A stretch of 64,000 nucleotides of DNA. It comes from a virus. Under the pieces are notes generated by a model, which was not told the DNA's origin, searched no databases, and worked only from the letters and a program-made list of their open reading frames with translations. The translations under genes were made by a program, and so were the position numbers. Location of the stretch: positions 15,356-79,355 of IMG/VR virus record IMGVR_UViG_3300034019_000950, one strand, 5' to 3'. This document shows, piece after piece, positions 9,304 through 17,100 of this stretch. Numbering within the stretch: position 1 is the stretch's first letter; every line of letters starts with the position of its first letter.

Positions 9304-9405
9304 CGGGTTTAGTCGTGCAGTGGAACAGTAAAAACTTGCAGTGCGCCTATTGCAAGCGTAACGGGTTGCATGTTACCCTTGTGGTATAGCAATGGGGCCG
9401 ACATA

Positions 9406-10149
9406 ATGAGCCGCAAGACCAGCAACATCACTCGCACCCGTGCCGTCGCGTACCTGCGCGTGAGCACAGACAAACAAGCAGATACTGGCGTAAGCCTTGA
9501 CGCACAGCGCGCCAAGGTGCAGCTCTACGCCGATCTCTACGACGTGGAGCTGGTCGAGGTGGTGGTGGACGCGGGCGCAAGCGCCAAGACGCTGGAGCGC
9601 GAGGGCCTGCAGCGCGCGCTGGCCATGCTGGACAGCGGCAAGGCTGACGCCCTGCTGGTGTGCAAGCTGGACCGCCTCACGCGCAGCGTGCGCGACCTGG
9701 GCGCGCTGCTGGACGGCTGGTTCGGGCGCAAGGACGGCCCGGCGCTGCTGTCGGTGCAGGAGCAGGTGGACACCCGCACGGCAGGCGGGCGGCTCGTCCT
9801 CAACGTGCTGATGTCCGTGGCACAGTGGGAGCGTGAAACCATCGGAGAGCGCACCAGCGCGGCGATGGCGCACATGAAGGCAGAGGGTGCGTACACGGGC
9901 GGGCGCGCGCCCTATGGGTGGCAGGCCGACGCCGAGGGGCAGCTGCACCCGGTGCCTGCCGAGCAGGCAGCCATCGTGCTGGCGCAGCAGCTGCACGCCG
10001 AGGGGAACAGCCTGCGCCGGGTGGGCGCGCTGCTGTTGGAAGCGGGACACCTGCCCCGTATCGGTAGTGCATGGCACGCGAGCAGCATCAGGGTTGTTCT
10101 GGCTGCACGGGTCGCAACGGCTACAAGTGTGGATCAGTCGGCTGCGTAA
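9406..10149 (+). CDS. Serine recombinase (resolvase family)
   Basis: YLRVSTDKQ catalytic Ser motif, KLDRLTRS, ERETIGERT, GGRAPYGW. Confidence 0.92.
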   Translation: MSRKTSNITRTRAVAYLRVSTDKQADTGVSLDAQRAKVQLYADLYDVELVEVVVDAGASAKTLEREGLQRALAMLDSGKADALLVCKLDRLTRSVRDLGALLDGWFGRKDGPALLSVQEQVDTRTAGGRLVLNVLMSVAQWERETIGERTSAAMAHMKAEGAYTGGRAPYGWQADAEGQLHPVPAEQAAIVLAQQLHAEGNSLRRVGALLLEAGHLPRIGSAWHASSIRVVLAARVATATSVDQSAA

Positions 10150-10201
10150 GTCACCTGTGCGCGTTGGAAGCAAACGCCCTATGACTTCTGCAGGAGGGCT
10201 G

Positions 10202-11086
10202 ATGCTCGATCTGCGAAACCTACCGACCAGCGCGGTCATGCGACTGGTCCGCGCCACCCCTCGGAGGGATGGCGCCGGCATCGTGTGGGACTACGACCTT
10301 TCTATTGAGGTTCCAGACGAACAGGCGGCTGCATTGGTGGACAGCTACGTGCCCGGTGCTGCACGAGCATTCGCCAGTGGTGGTGATGGTGCGCGTGGCA
10401 AGGCGAGCACAACCGGGGGCTTTGACCTGTGTGCGTTGGAGCTATCCGCAGAGGACGGGCGTCACCTTGCGCGAGGTCATGCCGAGGTGCGGCAGGCTAC
10501 GGTCAGCGTGACGGCATCACAGGCAGTGCTGGTGGTGCGCGTGCGCGTGCACGGACTGTTGGAAAGAGCGGCGACTGATGTTGTGTATCAGCTTGACGAA
10601 GTGCTGCAGGTGTCTTTGACGACACAGCACGCTGCACGACTGACGGTTGCGGAAGCTGTGGGCGCTGGGCAGCGGCCCGCTCAAAGTGTGGGTGGCTTGA
10701 TTGGCAGGCTGGTTGTCGTCCAGCATGGAACAGAGCTGATGGCTGGCATTGTTGTCCATCAGGATGGAACAAGCCTGCATCTTGAGTCATTGGACGAGGG
10801 CGTGTCGCTGGTGGACCTGGGAACCGGAAAGCCGGCAACGGTGTTGGACGTGGTTCCTCCTCCTGGCGAGGCGATGAGCGAGCTTGTGTCGTTCTACTCG
10901 GTCAGCTGTGCTCATGCCGGTGTGCGTGCAAGCTGGCACGACGTAATCACGGCAATCGGCCTGCTGTATGCTGAACAAAAGCTGCAAGCGTTGCCTGACT
11001 ACAGCTGGCAGCTTGACCCCGAGGTCTGGGAAGCTGCACTGGAGCACGCAATCACAAACGCGGGGCCGACAACGGCAGAGGCGTGA
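10202..11086 (+). CDS. Hypothetical protein
   Basis: Long ORF with GGAGG RBS and upstream GTGCG-N18-TATGAC motif. Confidence 0.6.
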   Translation: MLDLRNLPTSAVMRLVRATPRRDGAGIVWDYDLSIEVPDEQAAALVDSYVPGAARAFASGGDGARGKASTTGGFDLCALELSAEDGRHLARGHAEVRQATVSVTASQAVLVVRVRVHGLLERAATDVVYQLDEVLQVSLTTQHAARLTVAEAVGAGQRPAQSVGGLIGRLVVVQHGTELMAGIVVHQDGTSLHLESLDEGVSLVDLGTGKPATVLDVVPPPGEAMSELVSFYSVSCAHAGVRASWHDVITAIGLLYAEQKLQALPDYSWQLDPEVWEAALEHAITNAGPTTAEA

Positions 11087-11666: not shown

Positions 11667-12407
11667 ATGCCGACCACTGAGCTGAACCTGACGACCGTGG
11701 CGCTTTCTGAACTGCGCCCCGACCCTGCCAATCCGCGCACGCACGATGCGCGAAACATCGCGGCCATCGCAGCCAGCCTGCGAGAGCACGGTCAGGTAGA
11801 GCCGCTGCTGGTTCAGCGTTCCACGATGATGGTGATCGGCGGCAACGGACGTGCAGAGGCCATGCGCTCCCTTGGCTGGAAGCAGGCCCGCGTGGCGTTG
11901 CTTGATGTCAGCGACACGGAGGCTCGCAAGCTTTCCATTGCACTGAACCGCACGGGCGAACTGGCCGGATGGGATGAAGCTGTGCTGGCGCGGCACCTTG
12001 CCGACCTGTCGGCGTTGGATGGTTTCGTTGTCGAGGACCTGGGCTTCAACACGGCTGAGCTGGACGCCTTGGTGGCCGCCTATGTTGGTGAAGTCGATCA
12101 GATGCACTTGGAAGAGCCGCCGCCGCGCGACACCAGCAAACTTCCAATCAACCAGCTGACTGCCGCACAGACCGATCAGCCTGCTTCCCCTGTCACGTCG
12201 TCCGTCATGCCCGCTACGCCCGAGCACACCGTTCCTGCGCCGATGCCGACCAGCAGCGTTCGCCTTGTCCAGCTGTTCTTGGATGATGAAACCATCGACG
12301 GCTTTCAGATGGCCGTGCGCAAGCTTGCCGACCAGTACGTGACCGACAACATCACCGACACCGTGCGTCGTGCTGTGCTGACGGCAGCCGGCGATTGGAA
12401 GGACTGA
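11667..12407 (+). CDS. ParB/Srx N-terminal-domain protein
   Basis: LRPDPANPRTH...IAASLREHGQVEPLLV...IGGNGR, typical of phage ParB-like proteins next to DNA-modification genes. Confidence 0.85.
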   Translation: MPTTELNLTTVALSELRPDPANPRTHDARNIAAIAASLREHGQVEPLLVQRSTMMVIGGNGRAEAMRSLGWKQARVALLDVSDTEARKLSIALNRTGELAGWDEAVLARHLADLSALDGFVVEDLGFNTAELDALVAAYVGEVDQMHLEEPPPRDTSKLPINQLTAAQTDQPASPVTSSVMPATPEHTVPAPMPTSSVRLVQLFLDDETIDGFQMAVRKLADQYVTDNITDTVRRAVLTAAGDWKD

Positions 12408-13300
12408 TGCGGGCGGTCCTACGGACCAAGGTGCCTGAGCATGAAGTGGCTGCATGGAAGGGCAGGCACCCGCAGGCAAGCCAGTTCGACATGCTGGTTA
12501 CTGGTGAGTGCGACCTGTATGGGCCGGATGGATCACCTTTGCTGTTTGTCCGACGCGGCAAGCTGAACAGCGAGGCAATAGAACAAGCAAGGCCGACACT
12601 GCACTGGATGCGTCGCTTCACAAGCGACAACCGCGCTGACTACGCTGGCGGCATTGCAGCCAAGGCCGTCAACGCAGATGGCACAGTGGCGAAGCAGAGC
12701 CGGACATACGATGAGCAAGGCAACGTGATGAGTGTGCCGAGCTGCATTGCCGGCTTCTTTGAGCCGCAAGGCGGCCGGCATCCGTTCTGCAGGGCCACAG
12801 CATTCCTGCGCTCCTTCCCTGATCAATGGGCCAGTCTGCAGCCGATGCTTAGGGACGTCGGCGCACTCTATCGACGCACTGTTCCGCTGCGATGGAAGCA
12901 GCAGATGGAAGTGGTGGACAAGTCAGACCCAGCGTGGGTCATTCCTGGCACACCCTTCACTACGATTACCGTCAACAACACAGTGCCGGCTGCCTACCAC
13001 CGAGATGGTGGCGACCTCAAAGAAGGCTTTGGTGTCCTTGTCGTCTTGTCAAAGGGTCAGTTCGACGGATTCGATCTCGTCGTTCCAGAGTACCGTGTGG
13101 CTACCCACCTGCGCGACGGCGACGTTCTGTTCTTTGACCCGACTGTGTGGCATGGCAACACCCTGCCGACCAACATGGTTGGAGAGAAAGACGAGGACTG
13201 GTATCGCATCAGCCTTGTGGCTTACTACCGAGAGGGCATCGTCGGCTGCGGCAGCCCGCAGGCAGAGCTGCAAAAAGCAAAGGCCAGGGGTGCGCTGTGA
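12407..13300 (+). CDS. TET/JBP-family 2OG-Fe(II) dioxygenase
   Basis: PFTTITVN, HRDGGD (HxD), GDVLFFD..WHGNT (distal His), RISLVAYYRE (2OG-binding Arg); TGATG overlap with ParB gene. Confidence 0.88.
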   Translation: MRAVLRTKVPEHEVAAWKGRHPQASQFDMLVTGECDLYGPDGSPLLFVRRGKLNSEAIEQARPTLHWMRRFTSDNRADYAGGIAAKAVNADGTVAKQSRTYDEQGNVMSVPSCIAGFFEPQGGRHPFCRATAFLRSFPDQWASLQPMLRDVGALYRRTVPLRWKQQMEVVDKSDPAWVIPGTPFTTITVNNTVPAAYHRDGGDLKEGFGVLVVLSKGQFDGFDLVVPEYRVATHLRDGDVLFFDPTVWHGNTLPTNMVGEKDEDWYRISLVAYYREGIVGCGSPQAELQKAKARGAL

Positions 13301-13824
13301 AGACCGTGCTTTACGTCGTCGGAGCGCCCGGTGTAGGTAAAAGCACTGCGCTCACCGGACTACTCGACAAGTGGGCCACCGCGCTTGTTCAGTCCCCAAA
13401 GTGGACATTGAGTGCGCCGATTGCTCTCGTTGGTCACTACGTAAAGGGCGGCCATGATGGCGGCGACACCGTTCCCTACGACGGTGCGGCAGAGTGCTTG
13501 ACGTACATGCGCGATGTTCTGTTGCAAGATCACCGCCTGCATGGCTTTGTGCTGGATGGTGACCGCTTTACAACCTCTACCTGCCGTCAGTTCACTGACG
13601 GCCTACCTGGCATCCGTGTTGTGTGTGTTCATCTACAAGCCAGTGACGCAACACTCACAGCCAGACGGACAGCCAGGGGCAGCACGCAGAACCCAACATG
13701 GATGCTCGGCCGCAACACGAAGGCGGCACGGTTTGCTGACAGCTTCCCCGACGCGGTACGGCTGCAGACTGATGAAATGAGGCCGGATGAAGTCACCCAG
13801 GCAATACGGGAACTGTTGCGGTGA
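13297..13824 (+). CDS. P-loop nucleotide/DNA kinase of base-modification type
   Basis: GAPGVGKST, LDGDRF, ARRTARGSTQNPTWMLGRNTK; GTGA overlap with TET gene. Confidence 0.75.
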   Translation: MKTVLYVVGAPGVGKSTALTGLLDKWATALVQSPKWTLSAPIALVGHYVKGGHDGGDTVPYDGAAECLTYMRDVLLQDHRLHGFVLDGDRFTTSTCRQFTDGLPGIRVVCVHLQASDATLTARRTARGSTQNPTWMLGRNTKAARFADSFPDAVRLQTDEMRPDEVTQAIRELLR

Positions 13825-14864
13825 GCGCATCGCCAGTCGCACTTGCAGAGCCAGATCTTGCGAAAGTGAAAGCTTTGCTTCTGGACACGGCATCACCCGT
13901 ACACGGTGATCCATCGTGTGTAGTGGTGTTGTTGTCTGCGAGCCGTAGTGGAAGCAGCACGGTGCATGACCTGCTGGCCCGGTGCGATGCCGTCGCGGCC
14001 TTGCCAGGAGAGATTGAGCCATACCTGCGATTGACTGGTAACGCGCAAGGCGTAGATGGAAGTAACGAGGTCACTTCCTTCACAAACATCGAAGAACTGC
14101 GCGCGCTTGTCCGCACGGATCTGCGCCTATGGTCGCAACCTCTACCGCTGGTTCATGGTTCTGATTGGCATCAGCGTCGCCTGTTGTTTCAGTCTCCTAT
14201 GGGCTTGGAGCTGGACGAAGGCTGGTATGACGGTTGCAGCAGACCGCCCGCTTCCAATCTCACGGTCTTGGAAGAGCCGCCACTGGTTCCAATAGCAGAT
14301 GCGGTGAAGCCGGGTAGCCTAAACGGCGTCAAACTCATACTCAAAACACCACAACTCGTCTATCGACGTGGGCTGGTGGAGGCGCTGTTTCCAAACAGTC
14401 CGGTTCACTACCTACACCTAAGACGCAGCGCGCCGGGGACTGTCAACGGACTGCTTGATGGGTGGCTTGGTCCACACTTTTGGTCATATCGACTACCAGC
14501 GCCTGATGGGGCGGCGATGCCTGACTGGTGGTGCTTTGATGTGCCGCCAGGATGGCACGCGACACGAGGACTGCTTGATGCCTGTGTGCTGCAATGGGTT
14601 GCCGCCAACACGGCTGCGCTTCTGCACCCGCTGGTGGGGCATCTCCACTACGAGGACTTGTGGAGGCCGCAAGCAGAGCAACGAATAGCAGCCGCTTGTG
14701 GGATTGCCGTTGAGGCACGGCTACGTACAGTGATGGCGACAGAACAGCCGGCTGAAAGACGCTGGGCAACCAAGCGGCCAGAACTTGCAGGCTTGATGGA
14801 GAGGAATGACGTTACACAGCTCATGGAGCAGCTGGGTTACGTGAATGGAGGTGTCCAGTGGTAG
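13821..14864 (+). CDS. Sulfotransferase-family protein
   Basis: SASRSGSSTVHDLL (PAPS-binding loop), LKTP, HLRR...NGLLDGW, HYEDL. Confidence 0.75.
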   Translation: MSASPVALAEPDLAKVKALLLDTASPVHGDPSCVVVLLSASRSGSSTVHDLLARCDAVAALPGEIEPYLRLTGNAQGVDGSNEVTSFTNIEELRALVRTDLRLWSQPLPLVHGSDWHQRRLLFQSPMGLELDEGWYDGCSRPPASNLTVLEEPPLVPIADAVKPGSLNGVKLILKTPQLVYRRGLVEALFPNSPVHYLHLRRSAPGTVNGLLDGWLGPHFWSYRLPAPDGAAMPDWWCFDVPPGWHATRGLLDACVLQWVAANTAALLHPLVGHLHYEDLWRPQAEQRIAAACGIAVEARLRTVMATEQPAERRWATKRPELAGLMERNDVTQLMEQLGYVNGGVQW

Positions 14865-15691
14865 GGTTACAGGTCGTCAACCCGGATGGTCGGCTACGTT
14901 CAGTGCTGGTATCCAGTGCTGACAAGCTTGCGGCATCCTTGCCGGCCGCTGTTCCCGCAAGCTGGCTCGCCATGCCAGACGCAAAGGGTCTGATGGCAGA
15001 AGTGGAAGCATTCCACGACTTCTTGCGATCGCGCTTGCAGCTTGTTGTTGTCGACGTGGCCGACGCAACGCTGTTTGATGGCCTGTATGCGCGCGATTAC
15101 GGCGCCGTCGTCAATCAGACGCTGTATCTGATGCGCAGTCCAGTGCCGCATCGTGCGCCAGAACGAGACAGGGTGGCTGACGAGCTGCAAAGGCTTGGAA
15201 TCAAGGCAGTGTGCGCGCCAGATGATGTCTATGGTGAGGGAGCAGACCTGCTTCCGCTTTCGCAGGGCCGATGGGCAATCGCAACCGGACGGCGCACAAC
15301 ACAAGGCATGGCCTTATGGATGCGCTCGCAGCTTCCATCAGATCAAGTCCTCTATCGAACCAAAAAGCGTGGACCTGATGTGCCTCAGCACCTGCTGGGT
15401 GGCAACCGCATCCTCAACGGGGTGCTTTACCACCGCGCAGATGTCGAGCCACTGCCAGGATGGACGGGCGAGTGCGTCAGTCTGAATGTCAATGATGAGG
15501 TTGGCAGCAAGCTCGGCATGAACTGGCTCGTGCTGGACAGGGCGGAAGTCGTGATGGCAGAGGACTGCCCAGGAGTGCGAGCCATGCTGGAGAAAAAAGG
15601 CATCAAAGTTCATGTTCTGCCGATGGCTAACATCAGGGCAATGGGGGGCGGCTTTGCCTGCGCCACGTTGCCGCTGTGGAGAGATCTATGA
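14858..15691 (+). CDS. Amidinotransferase / arginine deiminase (pentein) family enzyme
   Basis: YARD, EGAD, QHL, GMNWL and C-terminal GGGFACAT with the catalytic Cys. Confidence 0.85.
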   Translation: MVGLQVVNPDGRLRSVLVSSADKLAASLPAAVPASWLAMPDAKGLMAEVEAFHDFLRSRLQLVVVDVADATLFDGLYARDYGAVVNQTLYLMRSPVPHRAPERDRVADELQRLGIKAVCAPDDVYGEGADLLPLSQGRWAIATGRRTTQGMALWMRSQLPSDQVLYRTKKRGPDVPQHLLGGNRILNGVLYHRADVEPLPGWTGECVSLNVNDEVGSKLGMNWLVLDRAEVVMAEDCPGVRAMLEKKGIKVHVLPMANIRAMGGGFACATLPLWRDL

Positions 15692-16644
15692 CAGATGCGC
15701 TTGATCCAACGTCATGGCCCTTGTGGTCTGTGTTCATTCGCTTTGCACGTCGTCAGCTGGAAACGCTCGACTACGACCCGTTCCATCCGATGCTGGTGCA
15801 CCTACAGCGCGGCACGAGTGTTGATGAAGGCTTGTGGTCCAGCTTCCTTTACATGGCCTTCTACAACCTGGGATCAGCCTACTGTGCGTGGACAACAACA
15901 CGTCCGATGCAGGCACTTCCAGCAATAGCGGACCGATGGTCTATCGGAACGCAAAGACGCAACCTGCGAGCAAGCAGTGTTTGCAAGCATGTTGAGTCAT
16001 TGGCATCGCAAGCCAGACCGCACGGGAGCCTCTACAGCTTCTTCACACATGACTTCACTGGTAACGAAAAGGCAGATTGGCTAAGCCTTCTGAACAGGCT
16101 GGAAGGCGTGTGGGGTAACGGAAGGTGGGGCGCTTACACGACAGCTGAGCTGCTACAGAAAGTGAACCAGCTACCAGTGCAGCCAGCAACCCTTGGATTG
16201 GAAGGAGCCACAGGCCCACGAAAGGGACTGGTGGTGCTGACGGGCCTATCAGCGGAAACCAGCACGGAGGTCATGCAGGTGTATGGTGACGCGCTACTGG
16301 CCAAGCTACGCAGCCTGTTTCCAAACCCCCGCATCCCCTGGGCAAGACACGGCATTGACTTCGCAATGACCGAAAGCATCCTCTGCGACTTCTACGGCTT
16401 GACCAAGGGTCGCTACTACATCGGGCGGGACATAGACCGTGAGGCAGGACGGATACTGTCTCAAAGTGGTCGAACTGACGTGGATATGGGTCCCTTGTGG
16501 GCCGCACGCGCCACAGTGTTCCCACCTCACCTGCTTGCTGAGCGACGGAGGACCGTGCTGGACATTGATTATGAAAGAGCGCGGGTCTACAAAGAGACTG
16601 GCCTGCTGGCAGACTACCGTGACGACTTCCCTTTGCTGCCATGA
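15688..16644 (+). CDS. Amino-acid:DNA transferase-like protein (aGPT-PPlase2 type)
   Basis: DYDP, GNGRWGAYTTAELL, ESILCDF...GRYYIGRDID resemble the glycosylase-fold thymine-hypermodification transferases; ATGA overlap. Confidence 0.75.
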   Translation: MTDALDPTSWPLWSVFIRFARRQLETLDYDPFHPMLVHLQRGTSVDEGLWSSFLYMAFYNLGSAYCAWTTTRPMQALPAIADRWSIGTQRRNLRASSVCKHVESLASQARPHGSLYSFFTHDFTGNEKADWLSLLNRLEGVWGNGRWGAYTTAELLQKVNQLPVQPATLGLEGATGPRKGLVVLTGLSAETSTEVMQVYGDALLAKLRSLFPNPRIPWARHGIDFAMTESILCDFYGLTKGRYYIGRDIDREAGRILSQSGRTDVDMGPLWAARATVFPPHLLAERRRTVLDIDYERARVYKETGLLADYRDDFPLLP

Positions 16645-16699: not shown

Positions 16700-17038
16700 A
16701 TGATTGACTACAAACAGGCAGTAAGTGGGGAACAGCGTGCGGCTTGTGCGAGGTTGCAGGCCGACCTGCAGTTAGAGCTGAGCGCACTGCCTAAGCAGGC
16801 AAAGTGGCACGAGCGCATCGCCTACAACAACGCAATCGACTGGCTCGATAGCGTCATTCAACATGGCGCATACGGTTGCCAGCTGTGCTTTACGAAGCAT
16901 CCGGTCGTGTTGCGTCTTGCTGCGCATCATGGAGTGCCGGTAGCGCCCGCCCCGCGTCATGCCACGACTGATGATGTGCGTAGGTTGCGGGAAGGCATCG
17001 CGCTGACAGAAAGGGTGCGTCCTAACCTGCGCGCATAG
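16700..17038 (+). CDS. Hypothetical protein
   Basis: ORF downstream of TTGCGC-N16-TAGTAT promoter-like site. Confidence 0.55.
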   Translation: MIDYKQAVSGEQRAACARLQADLQLELSALPKQAKWHERIAYNNAIDWLDSVIQHGAYGCQLCFTKHPVVLRLAAHHGVPVAPAPRHATTDDVRRLREGIALTERVRPNLRA

Positions 17039-17100
17039 GGGCGCGCAGGGGCGCGTAGGGGCGCGTAGGGGCCTGTAACGGGGCGCATAGGGTGCCCATA
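17031..17100 (+). repeat. Degenerate 10-bp tandem repeat GCGCRYAGGG
   Basis: gcgcataggg gcgcgcaggg gcgcgtaggg gcgcgtaggg followed by degenerate copies. Confidence 0.85.

Follow-up and report, generated by a model that had tools for sequence, protein, structure and literature searches.

A six-gene operon in an uncultured lake-water phage sets a sulfotransferase and a putative guanidino hydrolase into a DNA-hypermodification cluster of a known kind. The phage is represented by the 79,355-bp IMG/VR virus record IMGVR_UViG_3300034019_000950, which is 100% complete by CheckV; the window, i.e. the whole 64,000-nucleotide stretch of DNA that was analysed, is the right-hand 64 kb of that record, and the operon lies at positions 11667–16644 of the window on the + strand. 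Its translationally coupled open reading frames (ORFs) encode, in order, a ParB-like protein, a TET/JBP dioxygenase, a P-loop kinase, a sulfotransferase, a pentein and an amino-acid:DNA transferase (AADT, formerly aGPT-Pplase). The core of this operon is of an established type; what is new, and conserved, is the variant made by its tailoring pair of sulfotransferase and guanidino hydrolase, with a product that is possibly unprecedented. No studied phage was found to have the pair, and the DNA of the window phage probably carries an undescribed, possibly sulfated base. What might that base be? Our preferred answer, to which we give somewhat less than an even chance, is that this is a post-replicative thymidine-hypermodification operon in which an arginine-derived adduct on C5 of thymine is trimmed by the pentein and sulfonated with 3'-phosphoadenosine-5'-phosphosulfate (PAPS) from the host, shielding the phage DNA.

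The sulfotransferase and the pentein

The fourth gene (13821–14864, + strand) is predicted to encode a PAPS-type sulfotransferase of a rare family, with 13 clusters among 5.8 billion proteins. The stored 300-aa gene call starts 47 codons late, omitting 13821–13961 and losing the cofactor loop; homologues of 347–355 aa cover the longer N-terminus and back the 347-aa start. With the AlphaFold model (pLDDT 85), Foldseek retrieves PAPS sulfotransferases only, at probability 1.0, and all 50 matches listed by VIA-align are sulfotransferases, with Z from 13.1 to 8.3 over 177–248 aligned residues; for example, Z is 13.1 for Stf9, 12.6 for the sulfotransferase (ST) domain of CurM, 12.5 for that of olefin synthase (OLS), 12.4 for TPST and 11.8 for NDST. 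What the window enzyme shares with CurM ST, OLS ST, TPST, NDST and the mycobacterial Stf enzymes is the fold, the 5'-phosphosulfate loop and an acidic residue ~22 positions beyond it, whereas it differs from them in identity (8–21%), in large insertions and in a TM-score of 0.4–0.5.

Profile matches lead to the same class. PF13469 is carried by three members of the family, a profile built on a canonical Sulfotransfer_3 protein encoded close by in a Bacteriovoracaceae locus finds family members with E from 1e-6 to 1e-21, and the family profile matches OLS ST (1.9e-5) and CurM ST (6e-4) over the loop, SRSGS being aligned to their SPRSGST. Invariant in 12 family members are the SRSGS loop (S41, R42, S43, G44, S45), a GE.EP motif 22 residues on (E64, E66) and R202; going by position, E64, E66 and R202 may be the counterparts of the CurM Glu and of the 3'-phosphate motif. 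The sulfotransferase assignment made in a first-pass annotation of this DNA, for which a model had read the letters and a list of their ORFs, thus holds by fold, Foldseek, VIA-align and profile matches, and we accept the product of the fourth gene, on its modelled structure, as a sulfotransferase-family enzyme with an intact cofactor loop. No homologue of it was found by tblastn in 50,697 GenBank phage records.

Would the sulfo group stay on the product? The ST domains of CurM and olefin synthases sulfate a hydroxyl so that the hydroxyl can leave, and these domains are the best profile matches of the window family and also reach Z 12.5–12.6. By analogy, the window sulfotransferase might activate a hydroxyl, either that of 5-hydroxymethyluracil (5hmU) or that of a hydroxy side chain, as a leaving group, such that the final base would be without sulfate. 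We regard this as quite improbable; the cassette, like all related ones, already has the kinase presumed to activate 5hmU, the sulfate-retaining TPST, NDST and Stf-type enzymes score equally well, and the obligatory guanidino hydrolase would be left without a role.

The fifth gene (14858–15691, + strand) is predicted to encode a guanidino-group-modifying pentein of the Cys hydrolase type, similar to dimethylarginine dimethylaminohydrolase (DDAH), arginine deiminase (ADI) and ArgZ. The protein matches the Pfam ADI-family pentein entry (E=7.6e-7), and its AlphaFold model (pLDDT 97) is an alpha/beta pentein propeller with VIA-align Z of 31.4 for ADI (275 residues, root-mean-square deviation 2.4), 29.4 for ArgZ, 28.7 for AgrE, 28.3 for SxtG, 28.0 for AGAT, 27.6 for DDAH and 19.6 for PAD. 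A 28-sequence pentein profile matches Pseudomonas aeruginosa DDAH over its full length (6e-30), with D80, R99, E127, R146, H178 and C268 of the window protein aligned to D66, R85, E114, R132, H162 and C249 of DDAH. These six residues and D130 are invariant in every full-length sulfotransferase-linked pentein, viral and bacterial; the pentein of locus L010 is cut by the contig end and stands outside the invariance and His-motif counts. In other words, the Cys–His–Glu triad (C268, H178, E127), both carboxylate-holding Arg (R99, R146) and the guanidino-holding Asp (D80) are kept, and it is in these features and in fold (Z 27–31) that the window pentein is like DDAH, arginine deiminase and ArgZ/AgrE; it differs from DDAH, ADI and ArgZ in sharing just 15–18% identity with them and in being paired with a sulfotransferase in every case. 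Among NCBIfam models, those of dimethylargininase and arginine deiminase are the only ones matched (29.6 bits against a cut-off of 340, and 19.5 against 414), and the pentein is thus a family of its own within the superfamily, outside the named equivalogs. A tblastn search of the same 50,697 GenBank phage records gave no homologue of it, and isoelectric points gave no separation of DNA-acting from metabolite-acting enzymes.

The first-pass annotation had the pentein adding or removing an amidino group; of these, removal or conversion is now favoured, and gain is weakened by the best profiles (DDAH and ADI), by the top structures (hydrolases), by the residues after the catalytic His and by the arginase-family proteins that take the place of the pentein in some loci. 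After the catalytic His, the window pentein has HLL, sulfotransferase-linked penteins that reach this region have HLL, HIL or HIQ, and DDAH has HLK. An H-x-D at this place is found in ADI and amidinotransferases, and amidinotransferases are ~350–420 aa long, whereas the window pentein, at 277 aa, is DDAH-sized. Could it nonetheless be an amidinotransferase, taking an amidino group off free arginine and placing it on an amine of the DNA adduct, with the guanidinated base sulfated afterwards, in line with the amidino gain that the first-pass annotation allowed for? The first half-reaction and the arginine-binding residues are common to pentein transferases and pentein hydrolases, AGAT is the top match by Foldseek (E=1.2e-15), SxtG, HsvA and AGAT reach Z 28 by VIA-align, and pairs of an amidinotransferase with a sulfotransferase occur in the saxitoxin and cylindrospermopsin pathways. 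However, DDAH and ADI lead the profile and NCBIfam matches, there is no amidinotransferase model among the NCBIfam matches, length and HLL motif speak against an amidinotransferase, and arginase-family enzymes take the pentein slot; we consider an amidinotransferase improbable. Arginases hydrolyse guanidino groups, and we know of no amidino-adding member of the arginase family. From the full residue set together with the arginase swap, reading the pentein as a guanidino hydrolase is favoured over reading it as an amidinotransferase; deiminase, dihydrolase and DDAH-type cleavage could not be told apart.

The pair in viruses and bacteria

Sulfotransferase genes of this family were found in 17 IMG/VR loci, one of which (L014) is cut by the contig end, leaving 16 that are informative. 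A guanidino hydrolase, be it a pentein or an arginase-family protein, adjoins the sulfotransferase in all 16; a pentein is beside or near it in 14 IMG/VR loci, and in L006 and L016 an arginase-family protein fills the slot by the sulfotransferase and the AADT. The phage arginase-like proteins retain the DAHxD and DxD metal motifs. Two unrelated folds, with guanidino hydrolysis as their common activity, therefore occupy the same slot by the same sulfotransferase, an argument for removal or conversion of a guanidino group by the pentein, not for its addition, and for an arginine-derived moiety as the thing acted on. In L004, at 41% G+C, all six genes recur in the same order as in the window, and the sulfotransferase and pentein thus co-occur with TET and AADT genes in related phages, as the first-pass annotation would have it (the record of L020 also has TET). 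The initiating enzyme is not always the same: the pair stands with TET in L004, in the L020 record and in the window itself, and with ThyA-like genes in eight contigs of low G+C and in three further records, those of L013, L016 and L019. Since the pair accompanies either initiator, it would act downstream of 5hmU.

The low-G+C loci have a layout of their own. In L005, L007–L012, L017 and L018 (e.g. L005:7408-12607), a P-loop kinase, the sulfotransferase and the pentein are found with an APH-type kinase and a ThyA-like paralogue that is divergent; a further ThyA-like gene is present in most of these loci, and a baseplate gene of T4 type in L005. No AADT was detectable in this group, and eight low-G+C viral loci count as having the pair without one.

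Where an AADT is present, its phylogeny follows the pair. In a tree of 72 AADT sequences, all eight viral sulfotransferase-linked AADTs, the window's included, fall into one 12-member clade with full support (SH-aLRT 100), and the sulfotransferase label changes four times on the tree, where shuffled labels need 8.6 changes on average and none of 500 shuffles gets by with so few. Among the closest AADT relatives without a sulfotransferase, L060:6665-8110 and L063:7258-8679 have the AADT followed by a transporter of the CitMHS / sodium:sulfate symporter type and then by 5-hydroxymethyldeoxyuridine (5-hmdU) DNA kinase genes; a phage-encoded anion transporter in a DNA-modification cluster is unusual.

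These observations bear on whether the pair belongs to DNA modification at all. It could instead be an auxiliary metabolic or host-takeover module inside the operon, acting on a host metabolite or protein, and its bacterial homologues do stand in ordinary chromosomal contexts. We hold this to be highly improbable, as the pair lies between kinase and AADT with overlapping stops and starts, the same arrangement is found in L004 at its 41% G+C, the pair is consistently by 5hmU-pathway genes in 16 viral loci, and the AADT phylogeny tracks it.

In bacteria, which were surveyed at one genome per species, there are 35 sulfotransferase loci, and a guanidino hydrolase adjoins the sulfotransferase in 33 of them, the other two (L024 and L054) reaching a contig end. 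The same arginase-like family as in the viral loci lies 3' of the sulfotransferase in 25 loci, and the pentein does so in eight, from Bdellovibrionota, Myxococcota, Saccharibacteria and a Thermoplasmatales metagenome-assembled genome (MAG). Additionally, an MTS/PrmA-type methyltransferase is directly upstream of the sulfotransferase in 24 betaproteobacterial loci, and the arginase-like gene then follows in 23; L054, which has the methyltransferase, is the one that ends at a contig end. The resulting unit of methyltransferase, sulfotransferase and arginase-family genes is strictly conserved in ordinary chromosomal surroundings (L025–L049, e.g. L025:7183-9976), with hosts in Massilia, Duganella, Pseudoduganella, Rugamonas, Solimicrobium and others. 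So strict a pairing of sulfotransferase and guanidino hydrolase, in at least 33 bacterial species genomes, points to an unstudied bacterial pathway. In a Bacteriovorax MAG, a gene resembling dual-specificity or tyrosine phosphatases comes after the sulfotransferase–pentein pair (L051:9635-10255), and loci related to it have an extra canonical sulfotransferase and a methyltransferase.

Might the pair then work on a small molecule in the phage as well? It could build a sulfated amine or amino acid from a free arginine-derived molecule, which a clade-specific AADT would then attach to phosphorylated 5hmU. The pair is self-standing in 33 bacterial loci without DNA-hypermodification genes, the pentein is closest to ADI and ArgZ and keeps both carboxylate-binding Arg of the free-arginine hydrolases, and the AADT clade co-varies with the pair. 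On the other side, a free-arginine hydrolase would be redundant with host metabolism, yet here the hydrolase is an obligatory partner of the sulfotransferase; in the ViI and M6 pathways, tailoring comes after transfer, on DNA (PMC8989533); and the eight low-G+C loci just described have the pair with no AADT detected. We see tailoring ahead of transfer as rather unlikely, with the bacterial occurrences in its favour.

The thymine-modifying core and the proposed pathway

The first gene (11667–12407, + strand), whose stop overlaps the TET start, is predicted to encode a ParB-like activator of the dioxygenase. The protein matches ParB_N in Pfam at residues 8–92 (E=4e-7) and ParB-like families of PHROG with E down to 8e-38; as read from the sequence, it has a nucleotide-binding domain at the N-terminus and a short domain at the C-terminus, joined by a linker of ~50 aa that is rich in Pro, Thr and Ser. 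The product of the second gene (12407–13300, + strand) is a TET/JBP Fe(II)/2-oxoglutarate dioxygenase, predicted to convert thymine to 5hmU in DNA; it matches Tet_JBP (PF12851) at E=8e-25 (87.4 bits against a cut-off of 34.9) and has the iron and cofactor residues, namely an H-R-D motif, a second His (WHG) and the 2-oxoglutarate Arg (YRIS). Its tail of 16 aa beyond the last conserved Cys is common to the homologues of L001–L004.

The third gene (13297–13824, + strand) encodes a P-loop kinase, presumed to be a 5hmU DNA kinase, with the Walker A motif GAPGVGKST and a 29.4-bit match to AAA_33; it scores 26.4 bits against Ploopntkinase3, for which the cut-off is 27, and gave no HMUDK match in Pfam. 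A profile of this kinase picks up the kinase of ~55 TET–AADT cassettes that are without a sulfotransferase. A role as adenosine-5'-phosphosulfate (APS) kinase supplying PAPS was considered for it and rejected, as PF01583 is not matched and cassettes without a sulfotransferase have a kinase of this family too. For the sixth gene (15688–16644, + strand), the AADT identity assigned at first pass is borne out by a match to ADDT PF18724 (E=1.6e-17, 64.4 bits against a cut-off of 26.2); aGPT-Pplase3 is matched at 28.5 bits, and identity to the AADTs of the actinophages CaiB, Tonitrus and Kozie is 31–34%. The same core of ParB, TET, AADT and kinase is found in ~55 of 68 viral AADT loci. One AADT locus, on a 327-kb viral contig (L066/L067), has two TET and three ParB genes, one after another.

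Much of this core has precedents. Lee et al. described kinase and AADT pathways as well as metavirome contigs where TET_JBP stands in place of the dUMP hydroxymethylase gene, and inferred TET-made 5hmU for the TET-containing contigs (PMC8989533). That phage 5mYOX enzymes oxidise T in DNA has been shown in vivo and in vitro (O'Toole et al., PNAS 2026, PMC13229309); one subclass needs a neighbouring ParB and is linked with P-loop kinases and AADTs, and it is marked by a C-terminal tail on the dioxygenase and by a ParB in which a linker joins the nucleotide-binding domain to a C-terminal one (PMC13229309). The layout of the window ParB-like protein appears to agree with that of the 5mYOX-associated ParB, and judged by sequence the window proteins seem to fit both marks of the ParB-dependent subclass. 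The first-pass annotation had TET making 5hmU after replication, the kinase activating it and the AADT displacing the phosphate; this matches the published biochemistry of ParB-dependent dioxygenases and AADTs, and for the same reason the route is not new, since it is published (PMC8989533, PMC13229309) and its core is present in phages and in most viral AADT loci.

We also count in favour of a TET-initiated core that the Tet_JBP motifs are intact and that the complete genome has no other source of 5hmU or 5-methylcytosine. Profile searches of the whole 79,355-bp record gave no match to Thymidylat_synt, ThyX or C5 DNA_methylase, and none to DNA_pol_A, DNA_pol_B or DNA_pol3_alpha (families A, B and C); the lack of dUMP hydroxymethylase/thymidylate synthase, DNA polymerase and C5-methyltransferase that the first-pass annotation reported for the window is therefore true of the entire record.

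How would the six proteins act together? In the pathway that we prefer, the ParB-like protein would activate the TET/JBP dioxygenase, which would oxidise thymine in phage DNA to 5hmU; the P-loop kinase would phosphorylate the new hydroxyl; and the AADT would swap the phosphate for an amino-acid nucleophile, presumably arginine or a close derivative that serves as a masked ornithine. Homology to biochemically characterised systems underlies these three steps. The pentein, as a Cys hydrolase, would then turn the guanidino group into a ureido group (citrulline-type) or a free amine (ornithine-type), and the sulfotransferase would move a sulfo group from host PAPS to the adduct so trimmed, an N-sulfonate being the most plausible form. 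The outcome would be a sulfated arginine-derived thymine base and DNA that is shielded from host nucleases. Modelled folds and conserved residues show the enzyme classes of these last two steps; the substrate, the order of the steps and the final structure of the product we infer. Tailoring on DNA after transfer is modestly preferred to tailoring of the free amino acid before transfer, because a hydrolase that takes free arginine to citrulline or ornithine would duplicate host metabolism. Taking viruses and bacteria together, we tentatively propose, again with less than even confidence, that phage DNA carries a sulfated arginine-derived thymine adduct (an N-sulfonate or a sulfate ester) and that the pair is a widespread two-enzyme module that has another substrate in bacteria and was recruited for DNA by phages.

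Several observations weigh against the preferred pathway. The structures nearest to the pentein act on free arginine (Z 31), enzymes that act on polymer-bound arginine are further away (PAD, Z 19.6), and amidinotransferases are just 1–3 Z units behind the hydrolases. The sulfotransferase matches Pfam Sulfotransfer_3 at E=0.04 and 14.6 bits, under the cut-off of 27. The pair is also found in bacterial chromosomes without TET, kinase or AADT, beside a methyltransferase, and its ancestral substrate would therefore not be modified DNA and could be a free molecule. Additionally, the phage record has neither an APS kinase (PF01583) nor a PAPS reductase, and the phage, having no APS kinase, would depend on the host for PAPS. 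Finally, the amino acid that the window AADT transfers does not appear predictable from its sequence.

What would a sulfated base mean, if the proposal is true? To our knowledge, no sulfo-bearing nucleobase has been known before. What is added in the known thymine hypermodifications is an amine, an amino acid or an acetyl group, and a sulfo group would be a new chemical class of DNA base that brings a strong negative charge into the major groove; restriction enzymes, CRISPR nucleases, polymerases and sequencing chemistries would probably deal with such DNA in a different way. With six genes in a compact 5 kb, of a type already reconstituted in E. coli by others, the question is directly testable.

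Genomic setting and known systems

The six genes that the first-pass annotation described as joined by overlapping stop and start codons are all found, and each of the five junctions overlaps (in order, TGATG, GTGA, GTGA, 7 nt and ATGA). The likeliest starts are ATG 12407 for TET (alternative TTG 12395), GTG 13297 for the kinase and ATG 15688 for the AADT (alternative GTG 15676). The operon neighbours are replication genes, encoding an SF2 helicase, a PD-(D/E)XK nuclease, an AAA_24 protein, a primase-helicase, a resolvase and a dUTPase, in a window of ~63% G+C. Host inference from the primase-helicase and the terminase gave matches that are all distant and mixed. The whole cassette has no blastn match among GenBank phages; the full-length 4,978-bp cassette is found in 20 lake-water metagenome runs released in 2020–2024, and without any difference in contigs of four such runs (2020, 2023 and 2024); among the sequencing runs listed for it, none was of RNA. 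These runs are maybe one campaign that includes the source sample, and so we do not treat them as independent support.

Two further features of the window lie close by. In the gap beyond the ORF that follows the operon, a 10-bp unit with the consensus GCGCGTAGGG is repeated six times in tandem (17031–17092); its core motif is nowhere else in the window, and the array could be a protein-binding one. Upstream, a Resolvase-domain ORF (9370–10149) is overlapped in another frame by a 399-aa ORF (9887–11086) with no Pfam match, and the two (9370–11086) could be a frameshifted or unusual large serine recombinase.

Among known systems, the ParB-dependent 5mYOX clade C1 (PMC13229309), whose ParB homologue is defined as having no DNA-binding domain, is like the window in having a ParB directly upstream of a tailed TET/JBP dioxygenase, no C5-methyltransferase, kinase and AADT neighbours, and post-replicative action, which for the window is a prediction; to such clusters the window adds a sulfotransferase and a pentein between kinase and AADT, and the text of that paper has no mention of sulfotransferase, deiminase, amidinotransferase or guanidino enzymes. 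Phages ViI, M6, PaMx11 and phiW-14 (Lee et al. 2018; 2022, PMC8989533) share with the window, where the kinase is a presumed one, the logic of a 5hmU DNA kinase and an AADT with tailoring genes adjacent. Unlike the window, however, they make 5hmdU at the nucleotide level by a ThyA-like hydroxymethylase, and they tailor by pyridoxal-phosphate, radical S-adenosylmethionine, flavin or acetyl enzymes (PMC8989533); no sulfotransferase or guanidino enzyme is mentioned there. More generally, we found no paper in the literature linking a sulfotransferase or a guanidino enzyme with phage DNA modification.

Gordonia phage CaiB, Rhodococcus phage Tonitrus and Microbacterium phage Kozie have, like the window, a compact block of TET, AADT and kinase genes plus one more; an annotated ParB gene precedes the block in CaiB and Tonitrus, and none is annotated in Kozie. 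They differ from the window in that the fifth gene encodes a different protein of ~290 aa, in having no sulfotransferase or pentein, and in the position of the cassette, which is at the genome end by the terminase. For the chemistry that we propose, a parallel comes from farther afield. In clavulanic acid biosynthesis, arginine serves as a masked ornithine, and proclavaminate amidinohydrolase, an arginase-family enzyme, removes the guanidino group after coupling. That pathway makes a small-molecule antibiotic and involves neither DNA nor a sulfotransferase; what it has in common with our proposal for the window operon is the logic of the masked ornithine.

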